The notes under the pieces: model-generated
What the model saw: the letters and a program-made list of their open reading frames with translations, nothing else
What the model was told of the DNA's origin: nothing
Database searches by the model: none
Part shown: piece by piece, positions 5,664-64,000 of the stretch
How the letters are laid out: the number at the start of each line of letters is the position of its first letter
Position numbering within the stretch: position 1 is the first letter of the stretch
Made by a program: the position numbers and the translations under genes
NCBI GenBank assembly: GCA_013334765.1
Contig: JAAXWW010000003.1
Span: forward strand, 49,354 to 113,353
From: Candidatus Moraniibacteriota bacterium
GTDB lineage: Bacteria; Patescibacteriota; Minisyncoccia; Moranbacterales; UBA2206
Reading direction: 5' to 3'
Length of the DNA: 64,000 nt

Positions 5664-5870
5664 TTAATCTATTTTTTTCAATACGTATTTTTTGTAGCAA
5701 GCATAGCAATGGGTGCGATCGGCCGAAATGAGAGCACCGCACATCTTGCATTTCGATTTTCCGTATTTATGGAACTTCTCTTCCTTGTGCTTCTCAAAAC
5801 ACGGATAGCACATCGATGTTGCTGTAAACTTGCCATCCAGGATTTTTCCGCACTTGCTGCATCTTTGCAT
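5664..5870 (-). CDS. small zinc-ribbon protein (two CxxC pairs)
   Basis: 68 aa with CSKCGK...CYPC...CKMCG...CYAC. Confidence 0.5.
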   Translation of the reverse strand: MQRCSKCGKILDGKFTATSMCYPCFEKHKEEKFHKYGKSKCKMCGALISADRTHCYACYKKYVLKKID

Positions 5871-5893
5871 GATTATTTGGAATTAAATAATTA

Positions 5894-44595: not shown

Positions 44596-44620
44596 AAAAA
44601 AATACCTATCCAATGAGTGC
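44596..44620 (-). terminator. recurrent terminator motif T2 (degenerate copy 1 of 4)
   Basis: Plus strand AAAAAAATACCTATCCAATGAGTGC. Minus-strand RNA gives stem cacuca/uaggua (weakened) plus U-run. Confidence 0.4.
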
Positions 44621-44667
44621 TTCTATTTCTTGCAACTGGTTAGCAATTCTCAGTATTATAAACCTCT

Positions 44668-48200: not shown

Positions 48201-50637
48201 CAGAAATAATAGACAAAGCTCCGGAACCGGCCAATGAGGCAACATTGGAAAGCGCACCGGAATTTATAACTAAACCATTGATCGTATCAGTTGAAGTTGC
48301 TCCAGAAATTGCTCCGCTTAAAGCGAGTGTTGTCACACCAGAAAGTGCTCCGGAATTTATAACCAAACTATTAATTGTATTTGATGAAGCCGGTGCGACA
48401 ATCGCATTGGAAAAAGTTTGTACGCCTGACCAAGTATTGGCATTGGCAAGATTAATTGATAATCCGGATGACCCGAGAGAAAGCGATGTGCCATCAAGAT
48501 TAATCATAAGCCCAGTTGAATCTTCAAGGCCGGAATTAGTTCCCAATTGAATCGCCGAACCGGAAACTTTATTGGCCGTCGCGATAGTGGCTAATTTACT
48601 GTCAGCAATTGAAGCCGAGCTGGAAATGTCCGAATTGGTTATCGTACCGTCATAAATTTTAGCGGAAGTAATGGCACTATTGGCAATAGTGAGAACTCCG
48701 GTGTTTCCAAGTGTCGCATCGCCGCTCATCGCCACCGCTGTCGCCGTACCCTCGGAATTGCCAACATAGAGATAGCCGGAAGCAAGGCTGGTTGTGAGCC
48801 CCGAAGACCAAATCACTCCATTGGATGTGCCATTGACTGTAAGAATTTTTCCGGCGTTACTGGTATAATCTGGCACATCAAGACTGGTGATACTTCCGTC
48901 GATAGCTAATTTTTCCGTGTCCAATTCATTAATTGCAGCCTGAACAGTAGTAGCAGCAATATTTCCACTCGCCGTATTGGTAATTTTAAGCGCCGTATAA
49001 TCCCCACTATCCGCCGTGATTACGCCGGTACGACCAAAAACCGAAGTGACATTATTGGAATTAGTGAGTTTTTCCCAAGAAGTTCCATTACAAATCGCCC
49101 AGTCTTTATTGCTGTATCCATTGGAAGCATCGGTTGTCGCTACCCAATAATGTCCATCAGTCCCAGAATCACAAGTTTCCGGCGTAGCTGTCGCTGAATT
49201 ATTCCAAGTTCCTTGATAATTAAGCGATCCCATAACTCCGGATAGGAAATCACTCCGACTTACCTTGAAAATGGCTGATCCGGACGTGTCATACATCGGA
49301 ATATAATCATCACTCGCTACCGCTGAAGTTCCGGTAAGACCATTGATATTCAAAGATAAAGTGAGTGCCGCCCCTTCCGATCCGGAAGATCCGCCGGTAA
49401 TTCCGGTTCCATTGGCGATAGAAGCCACATAGTTTCCAGAAGTATAAGTCCCAAGGGCAATATCACTTCCGTGCCAGACTCCCGTTCCGATTGTTCCGAG
49501 CGTGGTCAGATTAGTTGAACCAGCCCAAAGAGAAAGGGCTGTATTTTCCACATTTCCCAAACTCAAATCGGATTTCGTAAGCGTTCTATTGCTTGCAGAA
49601 GTGACTCTTCCCTTAGCATCAATCGTCAGTTGCGTAACACTGGCTCCGCTATTTCCATAAGTTCCGGCTGATACCCCGGAATTATCCAAAACAATCGCGT
49701 CGTATGTCCCAGAAACATCTCCGCCAAAATCGGTCGTAGTATAAAGACCATTGGTAACTGTTCCAGCATTGCCAGAAATATTTCCTGTTATTTTTGAGCC
49801 TGCTAAAGACGTAATCCAGCCCGGATTGGCGTATGATCCGTTCGTAAGGGCGAAATTATCATCATAACTGTCGGCAATTTTAAGTCCTGACGCCGAAGCG
49901 GTCAGGGTTACGCCATCCAAGTTCAATGAAAAAGTAGAACCTGACAAATCCAGACCGGATCCGGCGGAATAGCTCGCACCGCCGCCGTCATTGCCGCATT
50001 CCCATTCCCCGCTCGTCGCATTATATTTCGGAATCTGATCACTCGTACATGAATTTGATGCCCAATCGGAAAATGTAATTGTGCCATCAGTGATTTCAGA
50101 AGAATCGATCGATGAACCAAAGACTGAACTAGCATCCTCTCCGTCTTCCCCATCTTCCCCATCTTCCCCATCTTCTCCGTTTTTACCATCCGCTCCGGTT
50201 AATCCTTGCAATCCGCGTTCTCCTTGAATGCCTTGTGCTCCTGTTGCGCCAGTTTCCCCTGTCATTCCCCGCTCGCCTTCAATTCCCCGCGCGCCCATTT
50301 CCCCAGCTGCTCCACTCTCTCCTTCCTTTCCTTGCAAAATATCTTGCTCAGTAATAACCTTGCTCACCAGAACAATATTTCCTTGACCTTTGATAAATTC
50401 CAAAGCCCGTTTCTCAATTTCTTCATCCGCTTCCTTATCGGAAGAAACTAATTGTCCGATTTCACTTTGCAAACACTGGTCATTCCACCAAGAACTGACA
50501 GAACACCATAATTCCTGGATGAAAGATGCGTTTCCCTTTTCCGCCGCATCGACTGCATGCGGAAAAAATCCTACCAACAAAAAACAAGCGACAGAAATAA
50601 TGAAATTTTTTGTATGTTTGTTTTTTACCTCAAACAT
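45262..50637 (-). CDS. giant (1791 aa) secreted surface protein: collagen-like triple-helix region, tail-fibre-like beta repeats, peptidase-S74 intramolecular chaperone domain, acidic Ser-rich tail
   Basis: Signal peptide. About 20 G-x-y triplets (GEGESGAAGEMGARGIEGERGMTGETGATGAQGIQGERGLQGLTGADGKNGEDGEDGED). About 1000 aa of Ser/Thr/Gly/Asn-rich repeats including a tail-fibre repeat-like GSSSKQWNEIYASNNTIYIGG. RRKENISSLDSETLKKVLELNPVTYNIIGSSRTELGFIAQDV resembles the endosialidase/tail-spike chaperone domain. C-terminal 110 aa poly-Ser/Asp. Confidence 0.7.
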   Translation of the reverse strand: MFEVKNKHTKNFIISVACFLLVGFFPHAVDAAEKGNASFIQELWCSVSSWWNDQCLQSEIGQLVSSDKEADEEIEKRALEFIKGQGNIVLVSKVITEQDILQGKEGESGAAGEMGARGIEGERGMTGETGATGAQGIQGERGLQGLTGADGKNGEDGEDGEDGEDGEDASSVFGSSIDSSEITDGTITFSDWASNSCTSDQIPKYNATSGEWECGNDGGGASYSAGSGLDLSGSTFSLNLDGVTLTASASGLKIADSYDDNFALTNGSYANPGWITSLAGSKITGNISGNAGTVTNGLYTTTDFGGDVSGTYDAIVLDNSGVSAGTYGNSGASVTQLTIDAKGRVTSASNRTLTKSDLSLGNVENTALSLWAGSTNLTTLGTIGTGVWHGSDIALGTYTSGNYVASIANGTGITGGSSGSEGAALTLSLNINGLTGTSAVASDDYIPMYDTSGSAIFKVSRSDFLSGVMGSLNYQGTWNNSATATPETCDSGTDGHYWVATTDASNGYSNKDWAICNGTSWEKLTNSNNVTSVFGRTGVITADSGDYTALKITNTASGNIAATTVQAAINELDTEKLAIDGSITSLDVPDYTSNAGKILTVNGTSNGVIWSSGLTTSLASGYLYVGNSEGTATAVAMSGDATLGNTGVLTIANSAITSAKIYDGTITNSDISSSASIADSKLATIATANKVSGSAIQLGTNSGLEDSTGLMINLDGTSLSLGSSGLSINLANANTWSGVQTFSNAIVAPASSNTINSLVINSGALSGVTTLALSGAISGATSTDTINGLVINSGALSNVASLAGSGALSIISGGTGTIALDSNSTGAVNIATGTAGKTVNIATDNTTADTINIGSALDTVTLKGNIVLDGNVTVNGNILPGTTNTYNLGSSSKQWNEIYASNNTIYIGGVALSNDSGTLKWNGSAIGGSSTSALSVMTLGSGGGILSDWNYLIKASAFNTASSIVLPTAVGNDGKEIEIVKTDASTNPVMVEPYSGEKINVSTDSIILDSQYESVTIRSDGSNSWIIADNRGDTASNSYDFYQARASTSQSSLSAGTTVAFNSSLATHQGSDISFSSSNNTFTLAAGKSYRLSGNVGYAGFSGTSGYMRWQWYNATSSSYIGEMGQIDGGSNASNSAPVADNAVAVITPTVDTQVRLVLLSGNQYSFIGQSGSGPYPSAYIENIGYDSTGGSITMDALAAAIDTNAIDNTNYAQTWNWSTATTQTGLTMTGNALTTGGLLSLTSSSASLNSTNGLLYVANTGAATNGIIARIASNSTAGSGLTVLANGNVGVGTTSPSYGLDIRAAGATTMRVMGNDASDTNFVIQAGNASYSPQLIFKNSSGASRWHIISSSGDSDKLKIRDYGDDTGVYLAQDSTSWTATSDSRRKENISSLDSETLKKVLELNPVTYNIIGSSRTELGFIAQDVLSLFPDLVDIPDDPDACDISTGDNCYGLTYDRFGVIAIKAIQDQQGEIEANINEITVLDLRTQNIVSSEDGKTVFKGTVVADTIQANRIEGLDFVSGSQLSDVDAQLVAQGQALNDISEQLALLQAKITGTELSLKLKDLQVSGGVTFKSSVEFQGPAVFKKLAEFIDKVVFKNDVEFAGNVTADKIVTFNSDTAGFAIIESDDTGVEVKFEKEYANAPIVTITPNNFISTQYKVKNVTSKGFEIMIKEKEDDDVNFSWTAISVKSAKTTSSDGSNNSEDSSGDDSDVPSSVDSNVPNSSGAVTTTATGTDSDDSSSSAGSGSTDTSGNSSSDSDSGSTDSASDSSESGSASSDSSSSADTQAN

Positions 50638-51992: not shown

Positions 51993-52220
51993 TCAGCCCG
52001 CAGCAATCGATAAATAGAACAGCAAGACAAAATATCTTCTTGTTTGATTCTCATCCTTCAAGCCATTGAACGCCCCATATATATCTTTGGGAAAACAAAC
52101 GGTTCCCTTTCTGGGATTGGCGAGTTACATGCTTAGATTGAAAACGAAGGATGCAGCAAAAATGCTTAAAAAATATGCCCAGGAAACGAGTTCGTTCCAG
52201 GGAAAACAGAATATGGCAAC

Positions 52221-52245
52221 AAAAAAACACCCATCCAATGAGTGC
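52221..52245 (-). terminator. recurrent terminator motif T2 (copy 2 of 4)
   Basis: Plus strand AAAAAAACACCCATCCAATGAGTGC. Minus-strand RNA forms stem cacuca/ugggug with loop uugga plus U7. Confidence 0.6.
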
Positions 52246-52258
52246 CTTGATTTCTTAC

Positions 52259-52507
52259 AACAAGTTCGTAATTCTTTGTGATTAGTCCTGAGAATATAGA
52301 ATCGTATGCGTGAGCTGTACAAAACCCACGACTGCCTCCGCCGGTTGGCGGATTATTTGGCTCGGCTTGCCTTTGCTGTTCCCTGATTGCTCAGGGTACG
52401 ACCAGCGGGCGATATCGATATTCCTCCGCCACTTGCCACTTAAGGCAAACGGCGTTTCGTGAGTAATATTCTACGATATCACCATATCTCCCTAGAAAGG
52501 AGGTGAT
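52259..52507. repeat. direct repeat C1: orphan copy of 16S 3'-tail (12 nt) plus ITS, ~250 bp
   Basis: Aligns base-for-base with 62234-62473 (caacaag...ttcgtaattctttgtgattagtcctgagaatatagaatcgtatgcgtgagctgtacaaaacccacgactgcc ... ccgccacttgccacttaaggcaaacggcgtttcgtgagtaatattct ... tctccctagaaaggaggtgat). Diverges immediately after ggaggtgat, where it meets the stop codon of the GNAT-ANT gene. Confidence 0.85.
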
Positions 52508-52519
52508 TCGTGGGAGGAA

Positions 52520-53851
52520 TCAGAGTTTTATCCCAAATTTACTGCAAAGAGCGTCCATATCCTCGTGGTCACTATCCTTGAGTTTACGCTTTGTTCCATC
52601 GTGGGTCTTTACCAATTGTTCTGGACTTACACATCTCACTGTCTGCCCATCAATAATTCCTGAGCCTGTAAGCGAATTGCTTGAATAGCCATCCCAGTAT
52701 TCCTCCGCTATAACACTGCCCTTATCGTCAAGGCTAAAAGCGTGGATATCCAATTCGTGACCCTTGTCATCGCCCATAACCAAGTCCCACATCTTGTCTT
52801 CATCCCTTTTTATCTCATTATATCCCTTCGACTCCAGATATTCCCTCAGCTTTGTTAAGTTTTTGCGCTCAACGGCAACATCCAAATCCTCGTGACTTCT
52901 GGTTTGCTCGCCAAGAAGAGCATCTACTGCCCAGCCACCATCAATCCATATTTTAATACCCAAGTCTTCCAGCTTGGCGTATAAATCAATAACATCCTTA
53001 TCCTGCATCTCCTTTTTTACGATTTCCATCATTAGGCTTCCGCTTAGCACCCATTCTCCATTATGGAAAACTGTCCTGTCATTTGGCACTACTTTCACTT
53101 TCCTAAATCCAGCCTTCTCGTAGAGCTTTATCGCACCTTGATGAAATTCACTGGTCTCAAGCACGACCTTCTTCATTTCCAGCCTATTAAAAGCATAGCC
53201 TAGTATCAACCTTGTGACCTCCAATCCTATGCTTTTACCCCAGTAATTCTTATCTAAAATAAAGATGTTAAACTCGCATTGTTCTTTTCCCTGAAAACTA
53301 CAGAGCGAAGTATAGCCAATAAACTTATCGTCATTCGTATAAATTCTCCAAAATATCTCATCCTTTTCTTTAACCAGAAAGTTTTTAATATCCTTAGTTG
53401 TTCTAAAACCTACCATTCTTTTAGCGGAATACAGATATCCAATTATTTCCAAATCAGTGAGCCACGCCAAAAGCTGAGGATAATTTTCCTTTAAGAAATT
53501 CTTTTTCAAATTAACTTGGTTTCCTTGTAGAATCATACCATTCGCCATCCTTACTAATTCCCAATATTTTTTCTCACCAATTTCATTTTTAAATTCGGTG
53601 AGTTTAGCATCTTCAACCAGATGTTTAACAAAATCAATCTTTTTGTCTTCAGGTACAGCTTCGTGTTCTTTTTCAAGTTTGTTATACAGGTCTTCATCTG
53701 CCTTTGGAATCGGCTTGTATACAGCTCTAATCATATTTACCAAATGATTAGCAGCTTCATAAGCGACAAAATCATTCAGTTCCTCATCATACTGTTCCTT
53801 ATATAATTTTTTGAATTTTTCAATATCTTCTTTTGTGAGTGACATAGACAA
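52520..53851 (-). CDS. three-part fusion: helical N-domain, GNAT acetyltransferase, ANT(2'')/Lnu-type nucleotidyltransferase
   Basis: GNAT motif A region FILDKNYWGKSIGLEVTRLILGYAFNRLEMKKVVLETSEFHQGAIKLYEKAGF. C-terminal IWIDGGWAVDALLGEQTRSHEDLDVAV is the aminoglycoside-2''-adenylyltransferase/LinA-family NTase signature. Confidence 0.65.
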   Translation of the reverse strand: MSMSLTKEDIEKFKKLYKEQYDEELNDFVAYEAANHLVNMIRAVYKPIPKADEDLYNKLEKEHEAVPEDKKIDFVKHLVEDAKLTEFKNEIGEKKYWELVRMANGMILQGNQVNLKKNFLKENYPQLLAWLTDLEIIGYLYSAKRMVGFRTTKDIKNFLVKEKDEIFWRIYTNDDKFIGYTSLCSFQGKEQCEFNIFILDKNYWGKSIGLEVTRLILGYAFNRLEMKKVVLETSEFHQGAIKLYEKAGFRKVKVVPNDRTVFHNGEWVLSGSLMMEIVKKEMQDKDVIDLYAKLEDLGIKIWIDGGWAVDALLGEQTRSHEDLDVAVERKNLTKLREYLESKGYNEIKRDEDKMWDLVMGDDKGHELDIHAFSLDDKGSVIAEEYWDGYSSNSLTGSGIIDGQTVRCVSPEQLVKTHDGTKRKLKDSDHEDMDALCSKFGIKL

Positions 53852-53854
53852 GTT

Positions 53855-54427
53855 TTATAAGTCAGCCAACTTTTCAATACTTTGAATAACATCAGGCAAC
53901 TCCAGACAAGAGTCTTCACCCTCTATTGCACCAGAGAAATGTTTAGCGTTATGTTTTATTATAACCCCTGCTCCTAGTTTTTCTTTAAACAAGTCAGCAT
54001 ATTTCAAATCTACGTAAGGGTCATCATCTGAATGAATTACTACAAAACCGTTCTTAACTTTGCTTTTGATTTTATCCAAATCAACAGGCGTTTCAAAAAA
54101 AGTCTTGATTTCGTCATAACCGACATTTTCCGTAAATCCTGCTACAAATACGACTCCGCCAATTTTTCGATTATCATCTAGGCCTTCCAGATATCGCATA
54201 ATGGTTATACAACCCAGGCTATGCCCAATCAAATACAAATCTTCATCTGGTTCTTCCACTATTTCTTTCAACATCGGCAGCCATTCATTCAGTTTTGGTT
54301 TTTCAGTATTGGGAAAAGCAGGAACTTCGACTTTAAATCCCTTAGCTTCCAATTCTTTTTTAACCCAAGGATACCAGCAATATTCTGGATAACCCTCCCA
54401 GCAATGGATAACAATGGCTCGTTTCAT
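53855..54427 (-). CDS. alpha/beta serine hydrolase of the RBBP9/YdeN family
   Basis: AIVIHCWEGYPEYCWYPWVKKELEAKGFKVEVPAFPN...LIGHSLGCITIMRYLE. Confidence 0.7.
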   Translation of the reverse strand: MKRAIVIHCWEGYPEYCWYPWVKKELEAKGFKVEVPAFPNTEKPKLNEWLPMLKEIVEEPDEDLYLIGHSLGCITIMRYLEGLDDNRKIGGVVFVAGFTENVGYDEIKTFFETPVDLDKIKSKVKNGFVVIHSDDDPYVDLKYADLFKEKLGAGVIIKHNAKHFSGAIEGEDSCLELPDVIQSIEKLADL

Positions 54428-54442
54428 AAGTTTATAAATTAA

Positions 54443-54745
54443 TTATTCCTTTGGTTTACCCCACTGCCAGCCTGGTTTCTCTCCTTTCTTATAGGCAACA
54501 ATGATGAGAAGGATGGTCAATACAATGATTGGCAGCGCGAATGTCAAGAAATTACTTCCTGAATCGGGATTTCCTGGGATATCCTCTTCCCTGGCAAGCG
54601 CGAGACTCAGGATGAGCAAGACGTAGAGAAATATGACGCACCACCCCTGCCATTTCGCTGGCGTCCATCCCCAGCCGTAGAGTTTCCGCTTGAACCAATA
54701 GCCTTTCGGATTGTCTTTTAAGTATTCGACGTATTCTTTGATCAT
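54443..54745 (-). CDS. small membrane protein
   Basis: 100 aa, two TM helices. Confidence 0.4.
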   Translation of the reverse strand: MIKEYVEYLKDNPKGYWFKRKLYGWGWTPAKWQGWCVIFLYVLLILSLALAREEDIPGNPDSGSNFLTFALPIIVLTILLIIVAYKKGEKPGWQWGKPKE

Positions 54746-54797
54746 TTCCTTGTTCCAATCTTATCGAAACATTCAAATTATTTTATTCACTATCAAA

Positions 54798-55301
54798 TCA
54801 ATTACCTAACCTTCTGCACTCTTCCAACCACTTATTAAAGGCTTTATAAAATTCTCCGTTCTTTTTCAAATCATCCCTGATAACTTCAATATTCTCATTA
54901 GTCATTATCTCGTGACTTTTCTCATCAGAAAGAAGATCCATTATTGGAACGGCAATCTCCGTGTCGTTTTCCCCGTCCCATTCATTGACATGAAAAACGC
55001 CAGAAAGCCCACTATCCCATGTCGCATCGATATTTTTCCATTCTCCGTCAATCTTCATTTCGAGATAAACATGCGTGCTATTGTCATCATGCTGAGCCTC
55101 ACATACGCCTTTAGGCAGTTTCAGATCGCTCCATCTGAAACTGCAAACCCGATACCTGCACTCGTATCCAAGATTCTCAAACGCTTTCTTCAGTAGCATA
55201 TGCTTTCCACTGCAACAGCAATCATTTTCGCCAAGCGAGACTGGTATTTTGTATGGTATATCCCTGACCTGATTGAAAGCATTGACCAATTTATTTTTCA
55301 T
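54798..55301 (-). CDS. transglutaminase-like cysteine-peptidase-fold protein
   Basis: CCCSGKHMLLKKAFENLGY (Cys), HVYLEMKIDGEW (His), NIDATWD (Asp) in the canonical order. Confidence 0.45.
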   Translation of the reverse strand: MKNKLVNAFNQVRDIPYKIPVSLGENDCCCSGKHMLLKKAFENLGYECRYRVCSFRWSDLKLPKGVCEAQHDDNSTHVYLEMKIDGEWKNIDATWDSGLSGVFHVNEWDGENDTEIAVPIMDLLSDEKSHEIMTNENIEVIRDDLKKNGEFYKAFNKWLEECRRLGN

Positions 55302-55304
55302 AGG

Positions 55305-56333
55305 CTATAGTTTCCTGATTATCACATCTTTCAAATATTGATTCATGAAATCAGTTTTTTCGCCTATTTTAGCTTTGCCATCCGAAACGAACCTCGCCGA
55401 AAGAGGCTTCTTGTATTTGTTGGATAATCCTTGGATGGTCTTGAGGATGTCAACCACTTTGCCCAGTTCCTCATCAACGCCGATAGGATAAGTGTCGATA
55501 CCGAGTCCTGAATGAAGCGACAGGAAAATGTTCCGTTCAATCGAAAAATTTCCTTTCTCATATTCCTGAGCCAGCTCGAAATCCTCAAGGCACGGGAACA
55601 TCAGTCCGCAAAGACCGATAGGCTTCGGATTGCTCTCTTTGATGAATTTGGTTATTCTCATGTATACATCGCTGACAACGGAATCATTAAAGCTTGGCCT
55701 CATTGCCTTGATGAAATTTATAAGACTGCTCTTCCCTTCGAATAGTGGGGCGATCGACGAATCGATTCCTAGATAATCCTTGTCCTGACCGAATAATCCG
55801 TCAATTTCATCCCAAATATCCTTCATTCTATTGAACCATTCTTCCAGCGAATTGCAGCCGTCTGCCAAATCATTAGGTTGGAGTCCGATTGAGAATCCTT
55901 CCTTTTCATAAGTTGCCGACGGGAAATACGGGCTTGATGGAGAATCGTTGAATACGTAGGAGAATTGGAATGTCCTCGCTGAATTTCCCTTTATTATCTC
56001 AAAAAGTAGCTCAGCATGTTCCGTGTTTATCTCCTCTGATGTCAAATCAACATTGAATGATATGCCTTTCTCAGCTCCCAAAAAATGACCCATCTGCTTC
56101 TTAGCTTCATCCATAGGAATCGTCCCGATATTCAGGAGAATCGATTCGTCCTTGACGGATTGTCCCAAATCTTGGAATGTTTTTCCGTTTGAGCAGATTC
56201 TTTTGGTTTGGATTTCAAAACCTCTGTCTTTTAAAACGTTTTCGATCTCGCCAAGCCGCCTCAGCGTCTCCTCGCTAGGATCATGAGAAAAACAGCAGAT
56301 TGTCCTGATAATCTTATTGCCCATATATTCCAT
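55305..56333 (-). CDS. hypothetical protein (possibly UPF0210/DUF711-like)
   Basis: 342 aa, mixed alpha/beta. No definitive motif. Confidence 0.4.
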   Translation of the reverse strand: MEYMGNKIIRTICCFSHDPSEETLRRLGEIENVLKDRGFEIQTKRICSNGKTFQDLGQSVKDESILLNIGTIPMDEAKKQMGHFLGAEKGISFNVDLTSEEINTEHAELLFEIIKGNSARTFQFSYVFNDSPSSPYFPSATYEKEGFSIGLQPNDLADGCNSLEEWFNRMKDIWDEIDGLFGQDKDYLGIDSSIAPLFEGKSSLINFIKAMRPSFNDSVVSDVYMRITKFIKESNPKPIGLCGLMFPCLEDFELAQEYEKGNFSIERNIFLSLHSGLGIDTYPIGVDEELGKVVDILKTIQGLSNKYKKPLSARFVSDGKAKIGEKTDFMNQYLKDVIIRKL

Positions 56334-56374
56334 TTTACTTAAAAATTACCGCATATCCCACCGGGACTTAATTC

Positions 56375-57433
56375 CTATCCGAAATAATTCTCCACAGCAA
56401 ACTCGAACTGTCTCAAAAACAGCTCTTTGAAATACGAAATATTGTTCTGCTCATAAAACAGCAAGACCGCTTTCTTATATTCACCCTCATCCATGCTTCG
56501 ATAAGAAAGAGGGCAAGAATCGAAAGATTGCAGGATCGCATTCCCGCTTAGCCGGCTGGTGCGCTTGTTGCCATCCACGAACGGCTGGATATAGGCAATA
56601 AGCAGCATCAGGATGACCGCTTTTTCGAAAGCGTCCTGCTTTTCATTCACAACCTTGCAAGCTTTTTCCAAGGCTTCTCTGATCTGGAACTCATTATCCA
56701 ACGGCTTATAATTCGTTCCGGTTATTCCCACTAAAGTTTTTCGCAAATTTTTCGTGACATTCAAACCGTCAACTAACATGGAATGAATGTTTTCTATTTT
56801 AGAAACGGATACGGATTGAAATTCATTCTTGTTGCTGCCGATATATTCCAAGGCTTTCTTGTGGTTGAGAATCATAGCGGCTTCTTCTTTGGAATGGCCG
56901 TCTGCTTCCTTTTGGTTCTTGATCAGCTGTTCCGTTTCCAAAAGGCTATAGGTATTCCCTTCTATTTTTGAAGATTTCCAACTGAAATCGATGTTCAATC
57001 TTTCGATTTCTTTCTTGAGCGCGTCAGGAGAAACATCCTTGATTTTATGCCTATAGGTTTCATTCAAATCAGAGAGCTTGTTTTTTTCAACTTCAGTGAA
57101 GATATCCTTCAGTTGTTCGAAAATATCGAAATTGAATTTCTCTTTCACTTCCCGCTGGTCGACATCATTGGCAAAATACTTCTCAACATCGATCTTTTTT
57201 ATAATCGGATATCTGGAAGAAAGTTTGTAGGTGACAGCTCGTCCGGCGGTACCTTGCCTTTCTATCAGGCCCAGCCCCAGCATTTTTTCCAAATCCCTAG
57301 AGATGGTCATCCTAGTCACCTTGCCCAGTTCTTTTTCTATATGCTCGATTATCTGACCGCCAGAAACAGTCCCTTTTTCTTCAATAAAAGAGAGGGTTAT
57401 TTCCTGCCTTCTGTTTAGCTTTTCAGTTTTCAT
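56375..57433 (-). CDS. Fic-family protein with N-terminal winged HTH
   Basis: Fic motif IQPFVDGNKRTSRLSGNAIL (HPFx[DE]GNGR with Q substituting for the His). N-terminal GQIIEHIEKELGKVTRMTISRDLEKMLGLGLIERQG wHTH. Confidence 0.75.
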   Translation of the reverse strand: MKTEKLNRRQEITLSFIEEKGTVSGGQIIEHIEKELGKVTRMTISRDLEKMLGLGLIERQGTAGRAVTYKLSSRYPIIKKIDVEKYFANDVDQREVKEKFNFDIFEQLKDIFTEVEKNKLSDLNETYRHKIKDVSPDALKKEIERLNIDFSWKSSKIEGNTYSLLETEQLIKNQKEADGHSKEEAAMILNHKKALEYIGSNKNEFQSVSVSKIENIHSMLVDGLNVTKNLRKTLVGITGTNYKPLDNEFQIREALEKACKVVNEKQDAFEKAVILMLLIAYIQPFVDGNKRTSRLSGNAILQSFDSCPLSYRSMDEGEYKKAVLLFYEQNNISYFKELFLRQFEFAVENYFG

Positions 57434-57445
57434 ACGAATATAATA

Positions 57446-57549
57446 GTAACATTTTTATGCCTTAAATGTAACATTTGTGTTACATTTAGTCAATCAAGCC
57501 ATTTATTTTTACATTGAAATGGCTGATATGAACCATTTTATTGTAACAT
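57446..57549. promoter_or_regulatory. GTAACA(T) repeat cluster including a 10-4-10 inverted repeat, upstream of the fic gene
   Basis: gtaacat at 57446, 57468 and 57543. Perfect IR aaatgtaaca-tttg-tgttacattt at 57464-57487. Sits between the -10-like tattat/tatatt and the fic ATG. Confidence 0.5.
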
Positions 57550-57636
57550 TTTATCCTTATATTCCGACTATATGAGATCAATCCCCATTTCATGCACTTG
57601 TTCCGCCTCGTCATTGCTTAAGACACCAAGATATGT

Positions 57637-58498
57637 TCACTTCCTGAGCTTTGGGTATTTTCCTTTGATCAGCTTGATAATCAGTGTCTTAAAGGTCACC
57701 GCATCTTTATATTCATAATTTTGATCGATATTCACCTCTTCAGATGGATATTCTTTTTCAATTTCGATTTTCAATCCCGCTTCTTCAAAAGATTCCAGAT
57801 ATTGGCCAAAATCTATGGCAGCATTTTTTATGGAAACCGACGACTCGCCGCGCTTCAAGATTATTGGAACGAAATTATTCTTGATTTCTTTTTCATGATC
57901 TCCTATATAGGCTACGTTCGTTTCGATCAAGACTTCTCCGCCCTCTTTCAAGCTATCGCTTATATCACGCATCGCTTTTTTTTATATCAGTGCTATAGAC
58001 CAAGCTGAATCGGGAAAAAACAATATCGAACTTCCTTTCGAAAGCTGGCAAATTATTTATATCCCCATTCACCACTTCGAATCGCCTCAGATCTTTTTCC
58101 TCCTTTCTCTCTTTTGCCTTTTGCACCATCGAGCGGCTCAGATCGATACCCAAGACTTCCTTAGCTCCTCTTTGGCAGAACAATTCGGAATAACGGCCGT
58201 TCCCGCAGCCGTGATCGAGAACTGTCTTCCCCTCGAAACTCTCCGGTATCAAGGATTCGAAGTATTTATCAGCTTCCGTCTTGTTCTCACCGCCTTCCGC
58301 ATCCTTGCCGATAGTTTCATAATATTTCTCTGTTATTTCTTCACTATAGATGCTCTCTGATTTTGGCATGAATTTTTCCATAAAAAATAGATTATCCTCA
58401 GGCATATTTAATATATACATTATATCCCAGCTTAACCAACAAAAAAACACCCGCCTGCTGAGTGCAAAATAAAAAGAGGCTATCGACATTGTCGACAT
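57637..58498 (-). pseudogene. class I SAM methyltransferase split by a frameshift at a homopolymer (A8 on the coding strand)
   Basis: ORF 57965-58498 carries VLDHGCGNGRYSELF (motif I). ORF 57637-57972 carries the downstream LKEGGEVLIET block. They overlap by 8 nt at the T8 run 57976-57983. Deleting one base fuses them in frame. Confidence 0.6.
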
Positions 58499-58503
58499 CC
58501 TCT
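58441..58503 (-). terminator. tandem terminator module T2+T1 (copy 3 of 4)
   Basis: Plus strand AAAAAAACACCCGCCTGCTGAGTGC (T2), then agagg-N19-cctct hairpin with A-run (T1). The minus strand gives two successive hairpin plus U-run terminators. Confidence 0.55.
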
Positions 58504-58518
58504 AGGGAGAAGACCAAT

Positions 58519-58566
58519 TGGACTTAGATGGATTCGAACCTCCGACTACCCGGATGCTAATCCGGC
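58519..58566 (-). other. tRNA 3'-half remnant (anticodon arm, T arm, 3' acceptor strand), homologous to the tRNA at 62001-62074
   Basis: Minus strand ccgga-ttagca-tccgg-gtagtc-ggagg-ttcgaat-ccatc-taagtcc-a parallels ccggg-ctagca-cccgg-ggtagtc-ggggg-ttcgaat-ctccc-caggccc-a of the intact tRNA. The would-be 5' half is the coding C-terminus (RTSAA*) of the helicase gene. Confidence 0.55.
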
Positions 58567-58568
58567 AA

Positions 58569-60452
58569 CTATGCCGCTGAGGTACGGACTAACTCTTCCA
58601 GCTTTTCCCGACCGATTATGTGCAGCTCGGACACCGCCCGAGTAAGCGCCACATAAAGGAGGTCTCTGTCTATTTTTCTTTTTTCTTCAGCGAAATCCTT
58701 GTATTTGTCATCCGCGTAAGATGCGAACATTTCCCTGCTGATCCCGACCAGGATAACGACGTCGAATTCCACCCCTTGAGACTCGTTCATCGTCATGACA
58801 TGGACTTTTTCGTTGTCGGAAAAGAATTCCCGGAAATCCGAAAGATACCCGCTCTCTTTGGCCAAAATGCCGACAGTGGAATAATCCTTGTCTTTGAGGA
58901 TTTTTCTGACCTGTTCGATTTCCTTATCCTTCGTTTCCAGAACATATTCTCCTACCGCCGCCCCATCCCTGAGCTGATCGATGATCTCGATGCCATATCC
59001 AAGCTTCTTGATGAATTTGAGGATGTTCTTGGTATTGCGATAGACCTTTTCCAAAACGACTTTCCTTTCCCCGTCCATCCGCTCATCGATATCGTCCCAC
59101 TGGCGGATCGTTCCCAGTTTCACCTGCTGGCCCATATCGCCGACATAAATGACAGCCCGGGTCCTCTCATTCACGCACGTCTTGATGAGGTTCAGCTGAT
59201 CAGGCAGATAGTTCTGGAATTCATCGATCACGGCCAATGAATATTTCAAAGGGACAGGCCCGCTTTTCTTCTTCACCTTCCCGTTCTTCTGTTCGACATA
59301 ATATTCCTTCACCACGCTTAACTCCTTATTGCGCCTATGGAAAATCTTCAGAAGAAGGGTCAGATCGATCCTGTCATATATGTTCCCGGCTTTCTGACTG
59401 CGAAACAGCTCCTTCTGGCTATCGCTGAAATGTGGTCCATAAATTTTTTCCAGCATTGAAAGATCATTGCCGATGAGATTCCTAGGCAGCTTCGCGAGGG
59501 CTTTCAGTTTCTGGAATTCATAGAGATCCTTCTCATATTCCGAATCCCCGTATCTATCAACGAAAACTCCATCCATTCCGAGAATCTTGAAAGCCCACTT
59601 CTGAAATGTCGTTATCTCAACCTCATCGATGCCGAGCTCCGCCAGGAGATGCGAGAAATATTCCTTCGTTCCTTCGTCTTGGACGAATACGATGATCGAT
59701 TTACTAGCATAGAGATGGGACAGATCCGGAGACTGGGCCAGATAGGCGACCCGATGCAAAGCCAATGTCGTCTTTCCGCTTCCTGCCGGACCGGAAATGA
59801 GGAATGGTCCGACATGATGGGCCCTGATCACCTTGTCTTGGGCCTTTTCCATCTGGGCCACGATTTCCGGCAGGACGAAACCGGTTTTCTGAGCGGAAAA
59901 ATATTCCTCATAAACCAGCTCCCTCGGCGCATCGATCCCTTCGGTCGATAGGAATTTGATCTTTCCGTCCACTATCATATATTGATCCTTTCGGAGGAGC
60001 CTCGCCTTCTGGATCATGCCGTCCGGCCGCTTATAGCTCACGTCTCCTGGTTTTTCGAATCGCATAACGGAAGCCGGGGCTACCCAGGAATAGATCGATT
60101 TCTCATCGAAACCGAATTTTCCGAAATATATTTCCGACTCCTTCTTGTCATCTGGAAAAAGAATATCGCATCGCACGAAATATGGAGAGCCCTCCAGATG
60201 CGCAAGCTCCCCCGTTCTTTTCTTGCCATTAGCCAGAATTATATTCTCAACCATCTGATTGGCATAGGAAAGGCTGCTGATTCTCTCTTTGCTTGATTTC
60301 AGATTGTTTTCCAGCTGCTTGAAGCCGGCTTTGATAGCGGCACGAACGTCGGCCAGATGCGTTCTGGCTTGGGATAGGATTGTTTCCTTATTGATCATAG
60401 GGATTAAAAAAAGACTTATGCATAAGCCAGGAAATCGCCCTTTCGGATACAA
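58569..60452 (-). CDS. UvrD/REP-superfamily (SF1) DNA helicase-like protein with ~200-aa N-terminal extension
   Basis: Walker A GPFLISGPAGSGKTTLALHRVAYL, motif II AVIDEFQNYLP, C-terminal VHVMTMNESQGVEFDVVILVG (motif VI region). Confidence 0.65.
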   Translation of the reverse strand: MYPKGRFPGLCISLFLIPMINKETILSQARTHLADVRAAIKAGFKQLENNLKSSKERISSLSYANQMVENIILANGKKRTGELAHLEGSPYFVRCDILFPDDKKESEIYFGKFGFDEKSIYSWVAPASVMRFEKPGDVSYKRPDGMIQKARLLRKDQYMIVDGKIKFLSTEGIDAPRELVYEEYFSAQKTGFVLPEIVAQMEKAQDKVIRAHHVGPFLISGPAGSGKTTLALHRVAYLAQSPDLSHLYASKSIIVFVQDEGTKEYFSHLLAELGIDEVEITTFQKWAFKILGMDGVFVDRYGDSEYEKDLYEFQKLKALAKLPRNLIGNDLSMLEKIYGPHFSDSQKELFRSQKAGNIYDRIDLTLLLKIFHRRNKELSVVKEYYVEQKNGKVKKKSGPVPLKYSLAVIDEFQNYLPDQLNLIKTCVNERTRAVIYVGDMGQQVKLGTIRQWDDIDERMDGERKVVLEKVYRNTKNILKFIKKLGYGIEIIDQLRDGAAVGEYVLETKDKEIEQVRKILKDKDYSTVGILAKESGYLSDFREFFSDNEKVHVMTMNESQGVEFDVVILVGISREMFASYADDKYKDFAEEKRKIDRDLLYVALTRAVSELHIIGREKLEELVRTSAA

Positions 60453-60586
60453 TTCGTCCCTGCTTATGTTAAGTCGGTCTGGCTTGAAGTGGTGTGATTC
60501 TCAGTTACAAGAATTTTTCAGTAGATTCAAGGTAACATATTGGGGAAGTTTGTGCAATAATTGTCATTTCATCGCCTTTCGACCAA

Positions 60587-61861
60587 TTATTTTTTAGTTG
60601 CCTTTTTCTTTGGCTTAACAGTAAGCGTAAGATCATATTCTAGGTTATTTTCTTTAAGTTCATATTCTTCCTTATAAATTTTTTTAAACAATTCCTTAAA
60701 TTTTTTATTTTTTTTCACCTCTCTAAAAAGTGGCCAATCTCTATATCCAGCCTTGGAGATAAACTCTCCGTCCTTGCCAATTTTTTTCATTATCAAAAAA
60801 GCAGCTTCATAATTTTCTAGGATAATTTCTTTGGCAAGTTTAAAATCATTTGAGGATGCACTCCAATCCCAACTATTGATAATTTTAAACGCATCTTCCT
60901 TATTACCTCCCAGTTTCCTAGATAAAGCTTTGTTTATGATAAAAACGTTTTTGTTTACATCGCTTGCATGTTTTTTTAGAACATCCGTCGAAAAATCCAA
61001 GAGAACATCAGCCAATGCAAATGATTGCCTATCTATAAGATCATAGCAAATTTTATTCAGATTATCATCTGCTTTTGAAAGCTCATTCGGTTTTAACTTT
61101 CTCCAAATAACATGAGTTAGCTTTACTCCCAATTCAATCAAGCAATTACAAATATCATCCAAATATTGAGGAGAAACGCCCAATTCCAATCCTGGCGCAT
61201 ATTCATGACTTAGCTTTACTCCAGACTGCTTGCAGATCGCGACGTATTGGCTACCGATAATTCCACCACAATGAACAAATAAATTTCGTCGCTCTGTTAT
61301 CTCTACAAATTTATGCCAAATCGATAAATCCTTACGCAAAGACATATTCAACTTTTTTTCTATCCATTCAAAATGAAATGTATGACTTTCTCTTAAAACA
61401 CTTTCGACCTCCTTTTCTATTATATAATTTTTCGCCTCATTAATATTTTTGAAATTGGTTAGTGCTGAGAAATTAACATTTTTTTCACAATTGTTAAGGA
61501 TTTCAGGGTTTAAAAGAATGATATTTCTTATTATGATACCTATAAAAAAATCGAATTCACTAATAAGTGAAACCGATATACTCCTTGGAACTATTCTTAA
61601 TGATGCTTTTGATATGTTAGTATCATTTTTGAGCTCTTCAAAATATTTTCTATTTTCGTGTTTAATTTTAAAAGACTTATTCGTTACATTCTTACCATTT
61701 TTTTTAATAAAATGAGCTAGTTTGCTCTGATTAACCTTGTGACTCACCTCAATTAATCCCATTGTTAAATGCAGTGCACGTTTTAAGCTATTTATATTTT
61801 TAATGAAGTTTTCTAAATTTTCTTCAAAGACATTGGTATTTTTTACCTTTTTACTATTCAT
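60587..61861 (-). CDS. HEPN-like (Rx4H) Abi-type protein, hypothetical
   Basis: Start moved to MNSKKVKNTN (RBS-compatible, avoids the terminator motif). ITERRNLFVHCGG contains R-N-x3-H, like Abi_2/HEPN active sites. 28 percent GC. Confidence 0.4.
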   Translation of the reverse strand: MNSKKVKNTNVFEENLENFIKNINSLKRALHLTMGLIEVSHKVNQSKLAHFIKKNGKNVTNKSFKIKHENRKYFEELKNDTNISKASLRIVPRSISVSLISEFDFFIGIIIRNIILLNPEILNNCEKNVNFSALTNFKNINEAKNYIIEKEVESVLRESHTFHFEWIEKKLNMSLRKDLSIWHKFVEITERRNLFVHCGGIIGSQYVAICKQSGVKLSHEYAPGLELGVSPQYLDDICNCLIELGVKLTHVIWRKLKPNELSKADDNLNKICYDLIDRQSFALADVLLDFSTDVLKKHASDVNKNVFIINKALSRKLGGNKEDAFKIINSWDWSASSNDFKLAKEIILENYEAAFLIMKKIGKDGEFISKAGYRDWPLFREVKKNKKFKELFKKIYKEEYELKENNLEYDLTLTVKPKKKATKK

Positions 61862-61925
61862 ATATCTTGGTTTATATAATAAGCTAGTAATATTTAAATT
61901 GTAACATAACGATTCTAAAAAACAT

Positions 61926-61985
61926 AAAAAACACCCATCTACTGAGTGCAAAAAAAGAGGCCATCGACAATATCGACAGCCTCTA
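61926..61985 (-). terminator. tandem terminator module T2+T1 (copy 4 of 4)
   Basis: Plus strand AAAAAACACCCATCTACTGAGTGC, then agaggccatcgacaatatcgacagcctct. On the minus strand both hairpins are followed by U-runs. Lies immediately 3' of the tRNA pair. Confidence 0.6.
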
Positions 61986-62000
61986 TGGGAAAGGCCTGAT

Positions 62001-62074
62001 GGGCCTGGGGAGATTCGAACCCCCGACTACCCCGGGTGCTAGCCCGGTAGCTCTACCGCTGAGCTACAGACCCA
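62001..62074 (-). tRNA. tRNA, anticodon uncertain (anticodon loop CUAGCA(C), formally AGC)
   Basis: Minus strand gggtctg-ta-gctc-agcggta-gagc-ta-ccggg-ctagca-cccgg-ggtagtc-ggggg-ttcgaat-ctccc-caggccc-a. Acceptor 7/7 with one G-U, good D and T arms. The anticodon arm is either a perfect 5-bp stem with a 6-nt loop or a 7-nt loop with a G-G mismatch. Confidence 0.6.
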
Positions 62075-62091
62075 CATTCAAAGGAGATTTT

Positions 62092-62167
62092 GGAGCAGCG
62101 GGCTGGATTTGAACCAGCGACTTCACCCCTGGCAGGAGTGCACTCTACCAACTGAGTTACCGCCGAC
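62092..62167 (-). tRNA. tRNA-Gly (anticodon GCC), CCA encoded
   Basis: D arm actc-agttggta-gagt, anticodon arm cactc-ctGCCag-gggtg, T arm gctgg-ttcaaat-ccagc. Discriminator U plus CCA. Position 1-72 is U-C by my reading, so the exact 5' end needs checking. Confidence 0.65.
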
Positions 62168-62233
62168 TCACGTTTCGAAAAAAAGGATCTTAAAAACACT
62201 TAGATAAATAAATGCTTTTAGGATCCTTTTTTT

Positions 62234-62473
62234 CAACAAGCTTTCGTAATTCTTTGTGATTAGTCCTGAGAATATAGAATCGTATGCGTGAGCTGTACAA
62301 AACCCACGACTGCCGTTTTTATTTGGCTCGGCTTGCCTTTGCTGTTCCCCGCCGAGGCGGGGTCGACCAGCTGACAATGACCATACCCCTCCGCCACTTG
62401 CCACTTAAGGCAAACGGCGTTTCGTGAGTAATATTCTGCGGTCATCGTCGTATCTCCCTAGAAAGGAGGTGAT
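62234..62473. repeat. direct repeat C2: authentic 16S 3'-tail plus ITS (partner of 52259-52507)
   Basis: See C1. This copy is contiguous with the 16S rRNA body. Confidence 0.85.
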
Positions 62474-62594
62474 CCATCCACAGCTTCCGCTACGGATGCC
62501 TTGTTACGACTTCACCCTTGTTACCGATCCTACCGTGGTCCCTGCTTTGAGACAGGGCCTTCGGGCATTACCAGCTCCCCTGGTGTGACGGGCG

Positions 62595-63457
62595 ATTATC
62601 TTCGTGAAACTACGAATTGATGTTCCCATCGTGCCTGCGGATTTCCCGCACACGACGAGCTCTAATGCATTTTTTGCTTGAGGTTATAGATTTTCCTTAA
62701 ACCCGCTTCTTTCAAATGGTCTTTATCCAAAACCATCTTGAGAATCTTGCAAAAAATTTCAAAGTCACCTTTCTTTGAACGTAACATCAAAGAATTCTTT
62801 TTGAAAAACGGAATAATAATCTTATCCAAGTCATTTCTATTGGCTACTTCAAAGCGGTAACAATCTTGATGATTGGCTCGTTTATCTCCTTGGAAATAAA
62901 CGTTGCCGCAACCGAAGAATTTTTTGAGCTCATAGAGGACTTCTTTGTCTTTCTCTATAAGTTTCAAGAAAAATCTCGGCTCAACCTTTGTCCGTCTTCG
63001 AACTTCTTTCGATGAATCAGGATCCTTCACATAGATTGTGAAACTTCCCTCTCCATCGACTAGGCCAACGATATAATTTGGATTCAATTTTTCCATATGC
63101 ATGGAGTGAATCCTTCCCTGCTTTGCAGCAGGTACTACGATTCAGCTGACTTCTTACGCTGCGTAAGTTTCATTACCTGCTTTCATTATAACATGAAAGC
63201 AGAACAACGTAAGATCTCCCGGGGTCATTTATTATTCTATTCCTCGCATTCCAACACGTCTTTTCGATGCATTTTCCCTAACCTCACCACCCAATCATAG
63301 GTCAATGCGACGCTTTTATTGCTGGACTGCGATCTGTTTCCAGATCCTTCACCGCCACCCTCGCGAATGGCGACTATCTTTCAACTGCGCTCTTTGTGAC
63401 GAACAAAGAGGAGGAGATTTGAACTCCTTGGAATAACAAACTGCCCGGCGCTTTTAT
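62595..63457 (-). mobile_element. group I-type intron in 16S rRNA (between ...TTGTACTCACA and CGCCCGTCACACC, E. coli ~1391-1397), encoding a LAGLIDADG endonuclease
   Basis: The universally contiguous sequences TGTACACACCG/CCCGTCACACC are separated by ~863 nt here. The insert carries the 146-aa ORF. Boundaries are approximate to within a few nt. Confidence 0.75.
62662..63102 (-). CDS. LAGLIDADG homing endonuclease (single-motif, ~146 aa)
   Basis: YIVGLVDGEGSFTIYV is a LAGLIDADG motif. Size and basic C-terminal region fit intron-encoded HEs. 30 percent GC inside an rRNA gene. Confidence 0.8.
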   Translation of the reverse strand: MHMEKLNPNYIVGLVDGEGSFTIYVKDPDSSKEVRRRTKVEPRFFLKLIEKDKEVLYELKKFFGCGNVYFQGDKRANHQDCYRFEVANRNDLDKIIIPFFKKNSLMLRSKKGDFEIFCKILKMVLDKDHLKEAGLRKIYNLKQKMH

Positions 63458-63561: not shown

Positions 63562-64000
63562 AGATCGGCTTTTTGAGATTGGCTCCACCTCGCGGTTTGG
63601 CAACCCTTTGTACCGACCATTGTAGCACGTGTGTCGCCCAGGGCGTCAGAGGGCCATGCTGATTTGACGTCATCCCCACCTTCCTCCCGGAACCCTGGTC
63701 ACGAAATATTCATGAACAAAGTTCCGGGCAGTCTCGCGTGACATATATAACACGCGATAGGGGTTGCGCTCGTTTCCTGACTTAACAGAACACCTTACGG
63801 CACGAGCTGACGACAACCATGCAACACCTGCTAGGCACCCTCGAAGGCTTGTATGTTTCCATACAATGCAGCCTAGTTTCAAGCCCTGGTGAGGTTCCTC
63901 GCTTACCGTCGAATTAAACCACATGCTCCACCACTTGTGCGGATCCCCGTCTATTCCTTTGAGTTTTAAGCTTGCGCTCGTACTTCCCAGGCGGCATACT

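Follow-up and report, generated by a model that had tools for sequence, protein, structure and literature searches.

We describe a locus at the 3′ end of the 16S rRNA gene in a 64,000-nt stretch of a Candidatus Moraniibacteriota genome (contig JAAXWW010000003.1, positions 49,354 to 113,353; the whole stretch is called the window here). The 16S gene is located on the minus strand and extends past the window end at 64000. Downstream of it, a 9.7-kb island of mostly accessory genes is bracketed by two copies of an element that we term T, which consists of the 16S tail and the RNA that follows it. T2 is attached to the 16S gene, and T1 is an orphan copy at the far end of the island (Table 1). This bracketing, together with the extent and common strand of the two copies, had been recognized in an initial annotation and is borne out by repeat search and pairwise alignment. 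The repeat pair is biology and not noise, and the following evidence addresses what T is and how it came to be duplicated.

T1 and T2 are co-linear direct repeats with a start-to-start spacing of 9965-9978 nt, and each copy comprises the last 12 nt of the 16S rRNA plus about 230 nt. The 5′ end of the repeat, ATCACCTCCTTT, equals the last 12 nt of 16S and is located at 52496-52507 in T1 and 62462-62473 in T2, the 3′ end CTTGTTG at 52258-52264 and 62234-62240, respectively. The 3′ end of 16S (position 1533 of the Rfam model) maps to 62462 on the minus strand, and T2 is hence continuous with the real 16S gene. T1 shows no 16S similarity upstream of ATCACC and begins 12 nt past the TGA of an open reading frame (ORF) that encodes a fusion of a GNAT domain and an aminoglycoside nucleotidyltransferase (GNAT-ANT), in line with the initial description of this copy as free of rRNA and adjoining the GNAT-ANT stop codon. 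Of 11 positions in the left arm of T1, 10 agree with the 16S tail. The window contains exactly two occurrences of the 17-mer core TCCTTTCTAGGGAGATA, against an expectation of 0.29 matches at three or fewer mismatches. Logan unitigs of run SRR11449211 reproduce the island at 100% identity (L001, window positions 52443-62272; loci other than the window carry L numbers throughout). They are identical across the GNAT-ANT/T1 junction and the junction sequences are therefore real. The unitigs (k = 31) end within identical blocks, as a repeat predicts, and the flanks cannot be phased with them.

Three blocks of 72, ~48 and 31 nt (A, B, and C) are 100% identical between T1 and T2 and are separated by diverged segments; the longest identical block measures only ~75 nt. 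The differences fall in four places, namely a long-range helix (P1; GGUGAUAUCG/CGAUAUCGCC in T1 vs GACGAUGACC/GGUCAUUGUC in T2), a hairpin (CCCUGAGCAAUCAGGG in T1 vs CCCCGCCUCGGCGGGG in T2), a 16-nt hairpin present in T1 only, and the 3′ flanks. The two compensated hairpins reported initially are real, and the larger helix P1 had been missed. Folding energies of T1 and T2 are -84.9 and -84.8 kcal/mol, which corresponds to z = -4.2 and -3.95 relative to shuffled sequences. A structure alignment of seven T copies from five lineages yields a consensus of 49 base pairs, 25 of which carry compensatory double changes. Pairing is maintained in 94.7% of the alignment cells compared with 35-47% when the partners are slid by 1-3 columns, and doubly changed pairs number 25, compared with 13.5 +/- 2.2 in shuffles and 2-10 after sliding. 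G.U pairs are compatible only with an RNA of the minus strand. In the first helix, which is invariant, the 16S tail CUCCUU pairs with AGGGAG. These data support the structural constraint on the RNA that the initial annotation had proposed.

We identify T as the 3′ external trailer of a 16S rRNA gene that is not linked to 23S. It is not an internal transcribed spacer (ITS) because no 23S is encoded within 62 kb downstream. No large-subunit rRNA was detected in the window, and a 23S downstream of 16S and T was not found in L004, L010, L020, and L046 either. T terminates in an intrinsic terminator. Hence, of the initial view of the repeat as the last 12 nt of 16S followed by the ITS, the first part stands and the ITS label requires correction. 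Within the window, the 16S gene is unlinked from 23S and also from 5S, and nearly all long ORFs are found on the minus strand. Furthermore, L046 contains a complete 16S gene with its leader, and leader positions 5864-5885 pair with the conserved 3′ motif of the T-like copies in an uninterrupted helix of 22-24 bp. This helix was found with 5/5 testable T-like copies, and the longest helix among 200 shuffles was 18 bp. The pairing was assessed by this longest-helix test; whole-length RNAduplex of leader against trailer was uninformative. The T of L046 holds the 3′ strand of the leader-trailer (processing) stem of pre-16S. In the window, the motif CUCAGGACUAAUCACAAAGAAUUACGAA presumably plays the same role, with the leader lying beyond position 64000.

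Other identities of T were considered. Rfam searches of both copies gave no credible family at E <= 10, and T as a known RNA (signal recognition particle (SRP) RNA, 6S, RNase P, transfer-messenger RNA (tmRNA), 5S, a 23S fragment or a large non-coding RNA) was discarded on this basis. A reading of the plus strand, with AAAGGAGGTGAT as a Shine-Dalgarno sequence behind a leader or riboswitch, was also rejected, as the minus strand carries the sequence in continuity with helix 45 of 16S and is the only one that the G.U pairs fit. Likewise, a TnpB/IscB guide RNA beside a 443-aa ORF was ruled out, since this ORF encodes the GNAT and nucleotidyltransferase fusion.

Homologues of T were obtained from a related species (L004/L005), via a neighboring hydrolase gene (L010), by a degenerate pattern scan (L020 and L017) and in L035-37, L041, and L042-45; an nhmmer profile used to search for T was sufficient for the loci in hand. 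The genes of L004/L005 share 74-84% nucleotide identity with the window, and RsgA shares 87.5% amino-acid identity. In this relative, the 16S tail is followed by a single T and then directly by the terminator of the T1 type, GCACUCAUUGGAUGGGUG-U7, and tRNA genes are missing. This arrangement is an empty site and matches the initial prediction of a relative in which the presumed ITS leads straight into the terminator. By this comparison, the 3′ flank of T1 is of the resident type. The single T of L004/L005 is a mosaic, with helix P1 and a further region (d) of the T2 type and the hairpin (c) and 3′ flank of the T1 type. Homologous exchange or gene conversion between T copies thus also happens.

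Orphan T copies without 16S are present in L017, L035-37, L041, L042-45, and at site 3 of L046. All of them diverge from 16S immediately 5′ of (A/T)CACCTCC, as does T1, and their flanks are unrelated. The 5′ end of orphan T in other Moranbacteria carries the common core CACCTCC-TTTCTAG-GGAGATA, and four orphan copies share a conserved arm of ~115 nt upstream of this core. L010 harbors a second, partial T (2264-2402; block C and terminator, 79% identical) about 600 nt after its 16S-attached T, and the pair brackets two ORFs for small membrane proteins. This distal copy looks like an older resident copy because its 3′ flank matches that of the single T in L020. Exact T blocks gave 0 matches in viral contigs and block B gave 0 matches in GTDB genomes. 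A looser T pattern returned 21 loci, of which only L017 and L020 are real. Two more viral scans yielded only unrelated 16S ends or chance matches, and T is therefore absent from IMG/VR.

Evidence for recombination at the core comes from L046 and L051. In L046, a 482-kb contig, the 16S gene is followed by six sites with TTTCTAGGGAGAT and a T-like right side, an arrangement that recurs in contigs from several other samples. The left arms of the sites read CACCTCC, CACCTCC, TCTCTCC, ATTTCC, ATTTCC, and TCTTTT. The cassettes between them contain two small ORFs, a 262-aa ORF, a HAD hydrolase or five small ORFs, and another one encodes a recombinase, an IS1595 transposase, a rolling-circle Rep protein, and a second recombinase. 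In L051, a contig from another sample (k141), the sequence to the left of site 6 runs directly into that to the right of site 2, with the crossover confined to 20 identical nt (ATTTCCTTTCTAGGGAGATA). The contig represents a circular permutation of an 11,067-bp interval. It bears the signature of recombination at the core that leaves either a tandem copy or an excised circle. In sequence, the core reads xxAxCTCC-TTTCTAG-GGAGxTxx and forms a partial palindrome around a center of 7 nt.

A link to a recombinase was found through T itself. In L017, an orphan T is directly followed by a tyrosine recombinase ORF that is truncated by an IS21 insertion. Its full-length relatives P0135, P0229, P0245, and P0298 are Xer-like proteins of 313-331 aa. 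Four contexts with available DNA were selected by homology of the recombinase protein alone, and T is positioned directly upstream of the recombinase gene in 4/4. The T-linked recombinases score below the XerA, XerC, and XerD cut-offs and reach 46-105 bits with integron-integrase models (cut-offs 265 and 435), with the match split in two pieces. The cargo near these units is mostly defence-related (CBASS cyclase, Gabija GajA/GajB, TIR, type I restriction-modification, DndB-like), and Mrr, Vsr, and methylase genes occur near a recombinase of this family in one context without DNA. In three lineages, a second Xer-like recombinase gene is located on the opposite strand 1.5-3 kb downstream of the T-linked one and is followed by an HTH_3 gene (L035, 6307-7257; L041, 8029-8973; L042, 13218-14147), which suggests a conserved two-recombinase module. 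The integrase of L020 was considered as the island integrase and set aside. It belongs to a second conserved Xer-like family, is 31% identical to the T-linked recombinase, and lies ~6 kb from T. The element in L017 (169-2471) is of the IS21 family (IstA, IstB), has a much higher GC content, and interrupts the recombinase gene; this 3.5-kb contig was binned as Syntrophorhabdus and is probably mis-binned or chimeric.

On balance, we consider it moderately probable that the island was inserted site-specifically at the 16S tail and is now a remnant devoid of its recombinase. The core, i.e., the first ~23 nt of T, (AT)CACCTCC-TTTCTAG-GGAGATA, overlaps the last 10-12 nt of 16S and is predicted to act as a site for tyrosine (Xer-like) site-specific recombination in this Moranbacteria-like clade of the candidate phyla radiation (CPR). 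T as a whole starts with a hairpin that takes in the anti-Shine-Dalgarno tail and continues with several conserved helices, the 3′ strand of the processing stem, and an intrinsic terminator. An incoming module would recombine at the core and push the resident trailer away. As the module brings a structurally competent T of its own, this T would become the new 16S trailer, and the displaced T would remain as an orphan at the far end. Repeated insertions of this kind would give rise to tandem arrays. In the window, one insertion, or several accreted ones, would span 62233 down to 52508. T2 and its private flank (hairpin terminator, tRNA-Gly, and the tRNA-like gene X) would have arrived with the island, and T1 and its terminator would be the earlier resident. 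The repeat, its RNA structure, the empty site of the relative, the common boundary, the association of recombinase genes with T, the array of sites, and a recombinant junction elsewhere are observed directly; for the window island, we infer the site-specific route of arrival, the acting recombinase, and the exact position of the crossover. Because this island contains neither a recombinase gene nor the upstream arm, the likeliest possibility is that it has decayed and become fixed, or that it can be mobilized only in trans.

Several observations weigh against a site-specific origin. Neither an excision product nor an empty site of this very island was observed. A tblastn search detected no tyrosine recombinase in the 64-kb window. 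T1 is not preceded by the conserved ~115-nt arm, and only 12 nt separate the core from the end of the GNAT-ANT ORF. The recombinases belong to a large family (910 proteins at E <= 1e-30) whose identities grade continuously within Moranbacteria, and hence the recombinase beside T could reflect conserved synteny rather than a functional link. Homologous exchange within the identical blocks, with a crossover in block C, offers a simpler explanation for the mosaic T of L004/L005. Moreover, the Ser_hydrolase gene inside the island looks vertically inherited. Its product is 85% identical to the orthologue in L004/L005, close to the 87.5% of RsgA, the family shows a smooth continuum of 87-65% identity across Moranbacteria, and the gene is linked downstream of 16S in L004 and L010. 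The initial notion that everything between the repeats is the accessory cargo of an inserted island does not hold for this gene. Hydrolase-centered contexts in L006, L007, and L052 showed no 16S or T nearby.

The strongest of the alternatives, which we nevertheless regard as unlikely, is Campbell-type homologous recombination, where a circular DNA with a trailer homologue enters by a single RecA crossover and leaves two hybrid copies without a dedicated recombinase. The identical blocks of 72, ~48, and 31 nt would suffice for such an event, the window lacks integrase and arm, and a crossover in block C leaves the mosaic T of the relative with one difference from the inferred ancestor. There is also a precedent in hypervariable region 2 (HVR2) of SAR11, an island with rRNA genes on its flanks whose exchange is attributed to homologous recombination (PMC2217521). 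Both HVR2 and the present locus are variable, accessory-rich islands in or next to a split rRNA operon with rRNA sequence as a conserved anchor for exchange. However, HVR2 is flanked by two different complete rRNA genes, whereas the present island has direct repeats of a trailer on its flanks, which begin at a single precise core and are tied to a site-specific recombinase. Simple homologous recombination, which the initial annotation had favored, leaves unexplained why homology starts exactly at the 16S tail core, and does so in five other independent orphan copies with unrelated flanks. Nor does it account for the consistent pairing of T with a recombinase gene or for the confinement of the L051 crossover to 20 nt. 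Even under this model, the T of the island probably derives from a site-specific event.

An assembly artefact or unresolved episome is improbable. In this case, the assembler would have threaded a circle of ~9.97 kb that carries one T into a chromosome with 16S, one T, terminator, and PAS gene, by way of the identical blocks. The relative shows exactly the proposed empty configuration, a circularly permuted contig is known for a related element (L051), and the k = 31 unitigs leave the flanks unphased. Yet normal reads and the large k-mers of assemblers exceed the longest identical block in length, 16S-attached and orphan sites occur in cis on contigs of 60-482 kb from several samples (L046-L048), and the Ser_hydrolase gene lies between 16S and RsgA in the relative as well, favoring the integrated order. 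Integrated and excised forms could coexist. A comparably small probability is assigned to T1 being maintained as an independent RNA, be it a 3′ untranslated region/terminator module or a small RNA that would pair with the 16S leader or with Shine-Dalgarno sequences in trans; the duplication would then have served this function and would not be a by-product of insertion. This might explain why every helix of T1 is kept via compensatory changes, why three blocks are 100% identical to T2, and why an intact terminator closes T1 right behind the last island gene. However, the same conservation is expected if any T can become the trailer or if gene conversion homogenizes the copies, and older copies decay, as illustrated by the remnant at 44.6 kb and the partial copy in L010. 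Least probable is the initially considered relic of a second rrn locus, in which a tandem 16S was deleted down to its last 12 nt and left its trailer behind. T1 does retain 12 nt of 16S, an intact trailer, and a terminator, but six contexts share the same 10-12 nt, an endpoint that independent deletions would not all reach. Moreover, the relative carries only one T, no 16S-like sequence is found upstream of T1, and orphan T copies elsewhere are located beside recombinase genes and defence cargo and not beside rRNA remnants.

Genomic islands and prophages integrate into the 3′ ends of tRNA or tmRNA genes via tyrosine integrases. The site-specific insertion favored here shares with these islands the invariant stable-RNA target, a replacement 3′ part supplied by the element, repeats that run from the crossover to the functional RNA end, an orphan 3′ fragment at the far end, tandem accretion, and, in related loci, an integrase gene that adjoins the attachment (att) site. 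In detail, one repeat lies in an intact RNA gene (T2) and the other is an orphan 3′ fragment (T1). The repeats have a fixed start, (AT)CACCTCC, in the window and five further contexts, and end at the trailer end before the terminator. The site is unoccupied in L004/L005. An integrase beside the att-like site is present only in the related loci L017, L035, L041, L042, and L046, and the window island lacks it. In contrast to tRNA and tmRNA islands, the target here is the last 10-12 nt of 16S plus a structured trailer of ~230 nt, and compensatory changes mark the evolution of a duplicated block that is far longer. In contrast to lambda-type integrases, the recombinase is Xer-like, though four related loci do have a conserved arm upstream.

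Xer-dependent mobile modules have been described as integrative mobile elements exploiting Xer (IMEX) and as pdif modules of Acinetobacter plasmids (PMC6449649, PMC7399989). In both, short sites for Xer-type tyrosine recombinases bound small modules that lack a recombinase of their own and form shuffled arrays, and L046 and the recombinase-less window island resemble this layout. The sites of such modules measure ~28 bp and have two inverted recombinase-binding arms on either side of a 6-8 bp spacer; the core described here is a partial palindrome around 7 nt. Unlike pdif sites, the sites described here look non-dif-like, although no formal comparison was made, overlap the anti-Shine-Dalgarno tail of 16S, and carry a long structured RNA. 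Furthermore, the array is chromosomal and anchored to an rRNA gene, and a dedicated Xer-like gene is found beside a site. Integrons share a fixed platform near a strong promoter, a tyrosine recombinase gene beside a site, and cassette arrays with structured sites as in L046. Judged by its model scores, the system is nevertheless not an integron because the recombinase falls far below the cut-offs of the IntI models and matches them in two pieces. In addition, T looks like an RNA-level structure of the host rRNA transcript rather than an attC site, and many modules comprise several genes with their own terminators. Sites of the attC type recombine as folded single-stranded DNA and lie between promoterless cassettes; the T-like sites between the cassettes of L046 are homologues of an rRNA trailer and come with terminators. 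A search of the literature, incomplete in coverage and thus weak evidence of novelty, retrieved no att site at the 16S 3′ end and no CPR islands at rRNA genes.

Tentatively, a broader scheme can be envisaged, which as a whole we consider possible but rather doubtful. The 16S 3′ end in Moranbacteria-like CPR bacteria would be the anchor of an integron-like platform for gene capture, where a resident or element-borne Xer-like recombinase inserts modules, many of them for anti-phage defence, at the anti-Shine-Dalgarno core. Each module would have a co-evolving copy of the pre-16S trailer because the ribosome maturation signal is part of the recombination site. Species would exchange arrays, which would also be reshuffled and released as circles, and the T2 to T1 block of the window would be one such array.

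Mobile elements of CPR bacteria are poorly known. If the site-specific insertion holds true, the 16S tail would be another stable-RNA target for mobile DNA beside tRNA, tmRNA, and SRP RNA genes, and the element would be obliged to carry a structured RNA of ~240 nt that is active in host rRNA maturation. Such a system would account for the collection and exchange of defence and accessory genes among CPR bacteria. Assemblies break at T repeats, and bins thus lose islands linked to 16S. The short invariant core and the small Xer-like enzyme constitute a directly testable recombination system.

Table 1. Features at and downstream of the 16S 3′ end in the window (positions 1 to 64000).
Feature	Position	Strand	Evidence or remark
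16S rRNA 3′ exon	62462..62596	-	Rfam model positions about 1384-1533; last 12 nt are the first 12 of T2
T2, 16S-attached tail and 3′ trailer	62234..62473	-	Repeat search, alignments, folding; core ATCACCTCC-TTTCTAG-GGAGATA (62451-62473), helix P1, hairpin P2, hairpin CCCCGCCUCGGCGGGG, block B, block C hairpin, motif CUCAGGACUAAUCACAAAGAAUUACGAA (presumed processing-stem strand)
Terminator in T2 flank, GGAUCC...GAUCC-U7 (hairpin and U-run)	62170..62233	-	Absent from single T of relative; spurious Rfam miRNA matches mark the hairpin
tRNA-Gly(GCC), island cargo	62091..62166	-	tRNA scan
tRNA-like gene X	61998..62074	-	Normal cloverleaf, 6-nt anticodon loop CUAGCA; ARAGORN gives 2-base anticodon
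Double intrinsic terminator	61926..61995	-	Second hairpin GCACUCAGUAGAUGGGUG-U6 is a member of the four-copy terminator family
Two-gene module	58569..61861	-	424-aa protein 60587-61861; UvrD/GajB-like helicase 58569-60398
Degenerate tRNA-X′ and double terminator	58442..58608	-	78-87% identical to 61926-62032
Split S-adenosylmethionine-dependent methyltransferase	57965-58420 and 57637-57972	-	
HTH-Fic	56375-57433	-	
DUF711	55305-56333	-	
ORFs of 167 and 100 aa	within 52520..58420	-	
Ser_hydrolase	53855-54427	-	Looks vertically inherited
GNAT and aminoglycoside-2″-nucleotidyltransferase-like fusion	52520-53845	-	
T1, orphan copy	52259..52507	-	Core 52485-52507; own compensated P1 and hairpin c; extra hairpin UCCGCCAACCGGCGGA
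Terminator GCACUCAUUGGAUGGGUG-U7 after T1	52215..52258	-	Same flank follows single T of L004
Third, partial T copy (last ~55 nt and terminator)	44596..44650	-	82% identity to T1 end
Terminator family members	61926-61949, 58442-58465, 52221-52245, and 44596-44650 region (44620)	-	

The contents of the island (Table 1) are only modestly AT-rich, with a GC content of ~0.40 compared to ~0.44 for the whole window; the initial claim of an AT-rich island is thus correct in direction, but the difference is modest. Two of the labels assigned initially were replaced or dropped: the ORF described as transglutaminase-like encodes a DUF711 protein, and a HEPN-like label for the 424-aa ORF is unsupported by Pfam, PADLOC, and PDB searches, which gave no match. 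No tRNA gene was found downstream of 16S and T in the related loci scanned with ARAGORN, including L004, L010, L020, and L046.

A second direct repeat is nested within the island. The segments 58442-58551 and 61926-62032 comprise the 3′ half of tRNA-X and two tandem terminators. The degenerate tRNA-X′ (58528-58608, minus strand) has the loop UUAGCA, lacks an acceptor stem, and overlaps the 3′ end of the helicase ORF. The module of the helicase and the 424-aa protein is hence bracketed by tRNA-X with its terminators and their diverged copy, and is a candidate for a nested insertion into tRNA-X. No integrase is encoded in this module.

The terminator family GCACUCA-N-GGGUG-U6 has exactly four members in 64 kb, every one of them between 16S and RsgA and in minus-strand orientation. 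In front of the member at 44.6 kb lie 55 nt left over from the T 3′ end, which may mark an older module boundary. The four-member terminator family and the partial T fit serial accretion, and the stretch from 16S to RsgA resembles an array built up by accretion. A similar element is present in L004 near position 2.75 kb. Just downstream of T1, a 1791-aa protein (45262-50637, minus strand) is built like a phage tail fibre, with collagen triple-helix repeats, an H-type lectin domain, and an endosialidase chaperone domain (Peptidase_S74). It is absent from L004/L005.

An 810-nt insertion (62597-63406, minus strand) interrupts the 16S gene itself near model position 1389. The insertion encodes a 146-aa LAGLIDADG endonuclease ORF (62662-63102), contains a borderline match to the Rfam group II D1-D4 model (63110-63185; 35.5 bits, cut-off 35), and has a domain-V-like hairpin near its 3′ end, but is very small for a group II intron. 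The 16S genes of L010 and L046 carry LAGLIDADG_3 ORFs, and the insertion in L046 matches the group I intron model.

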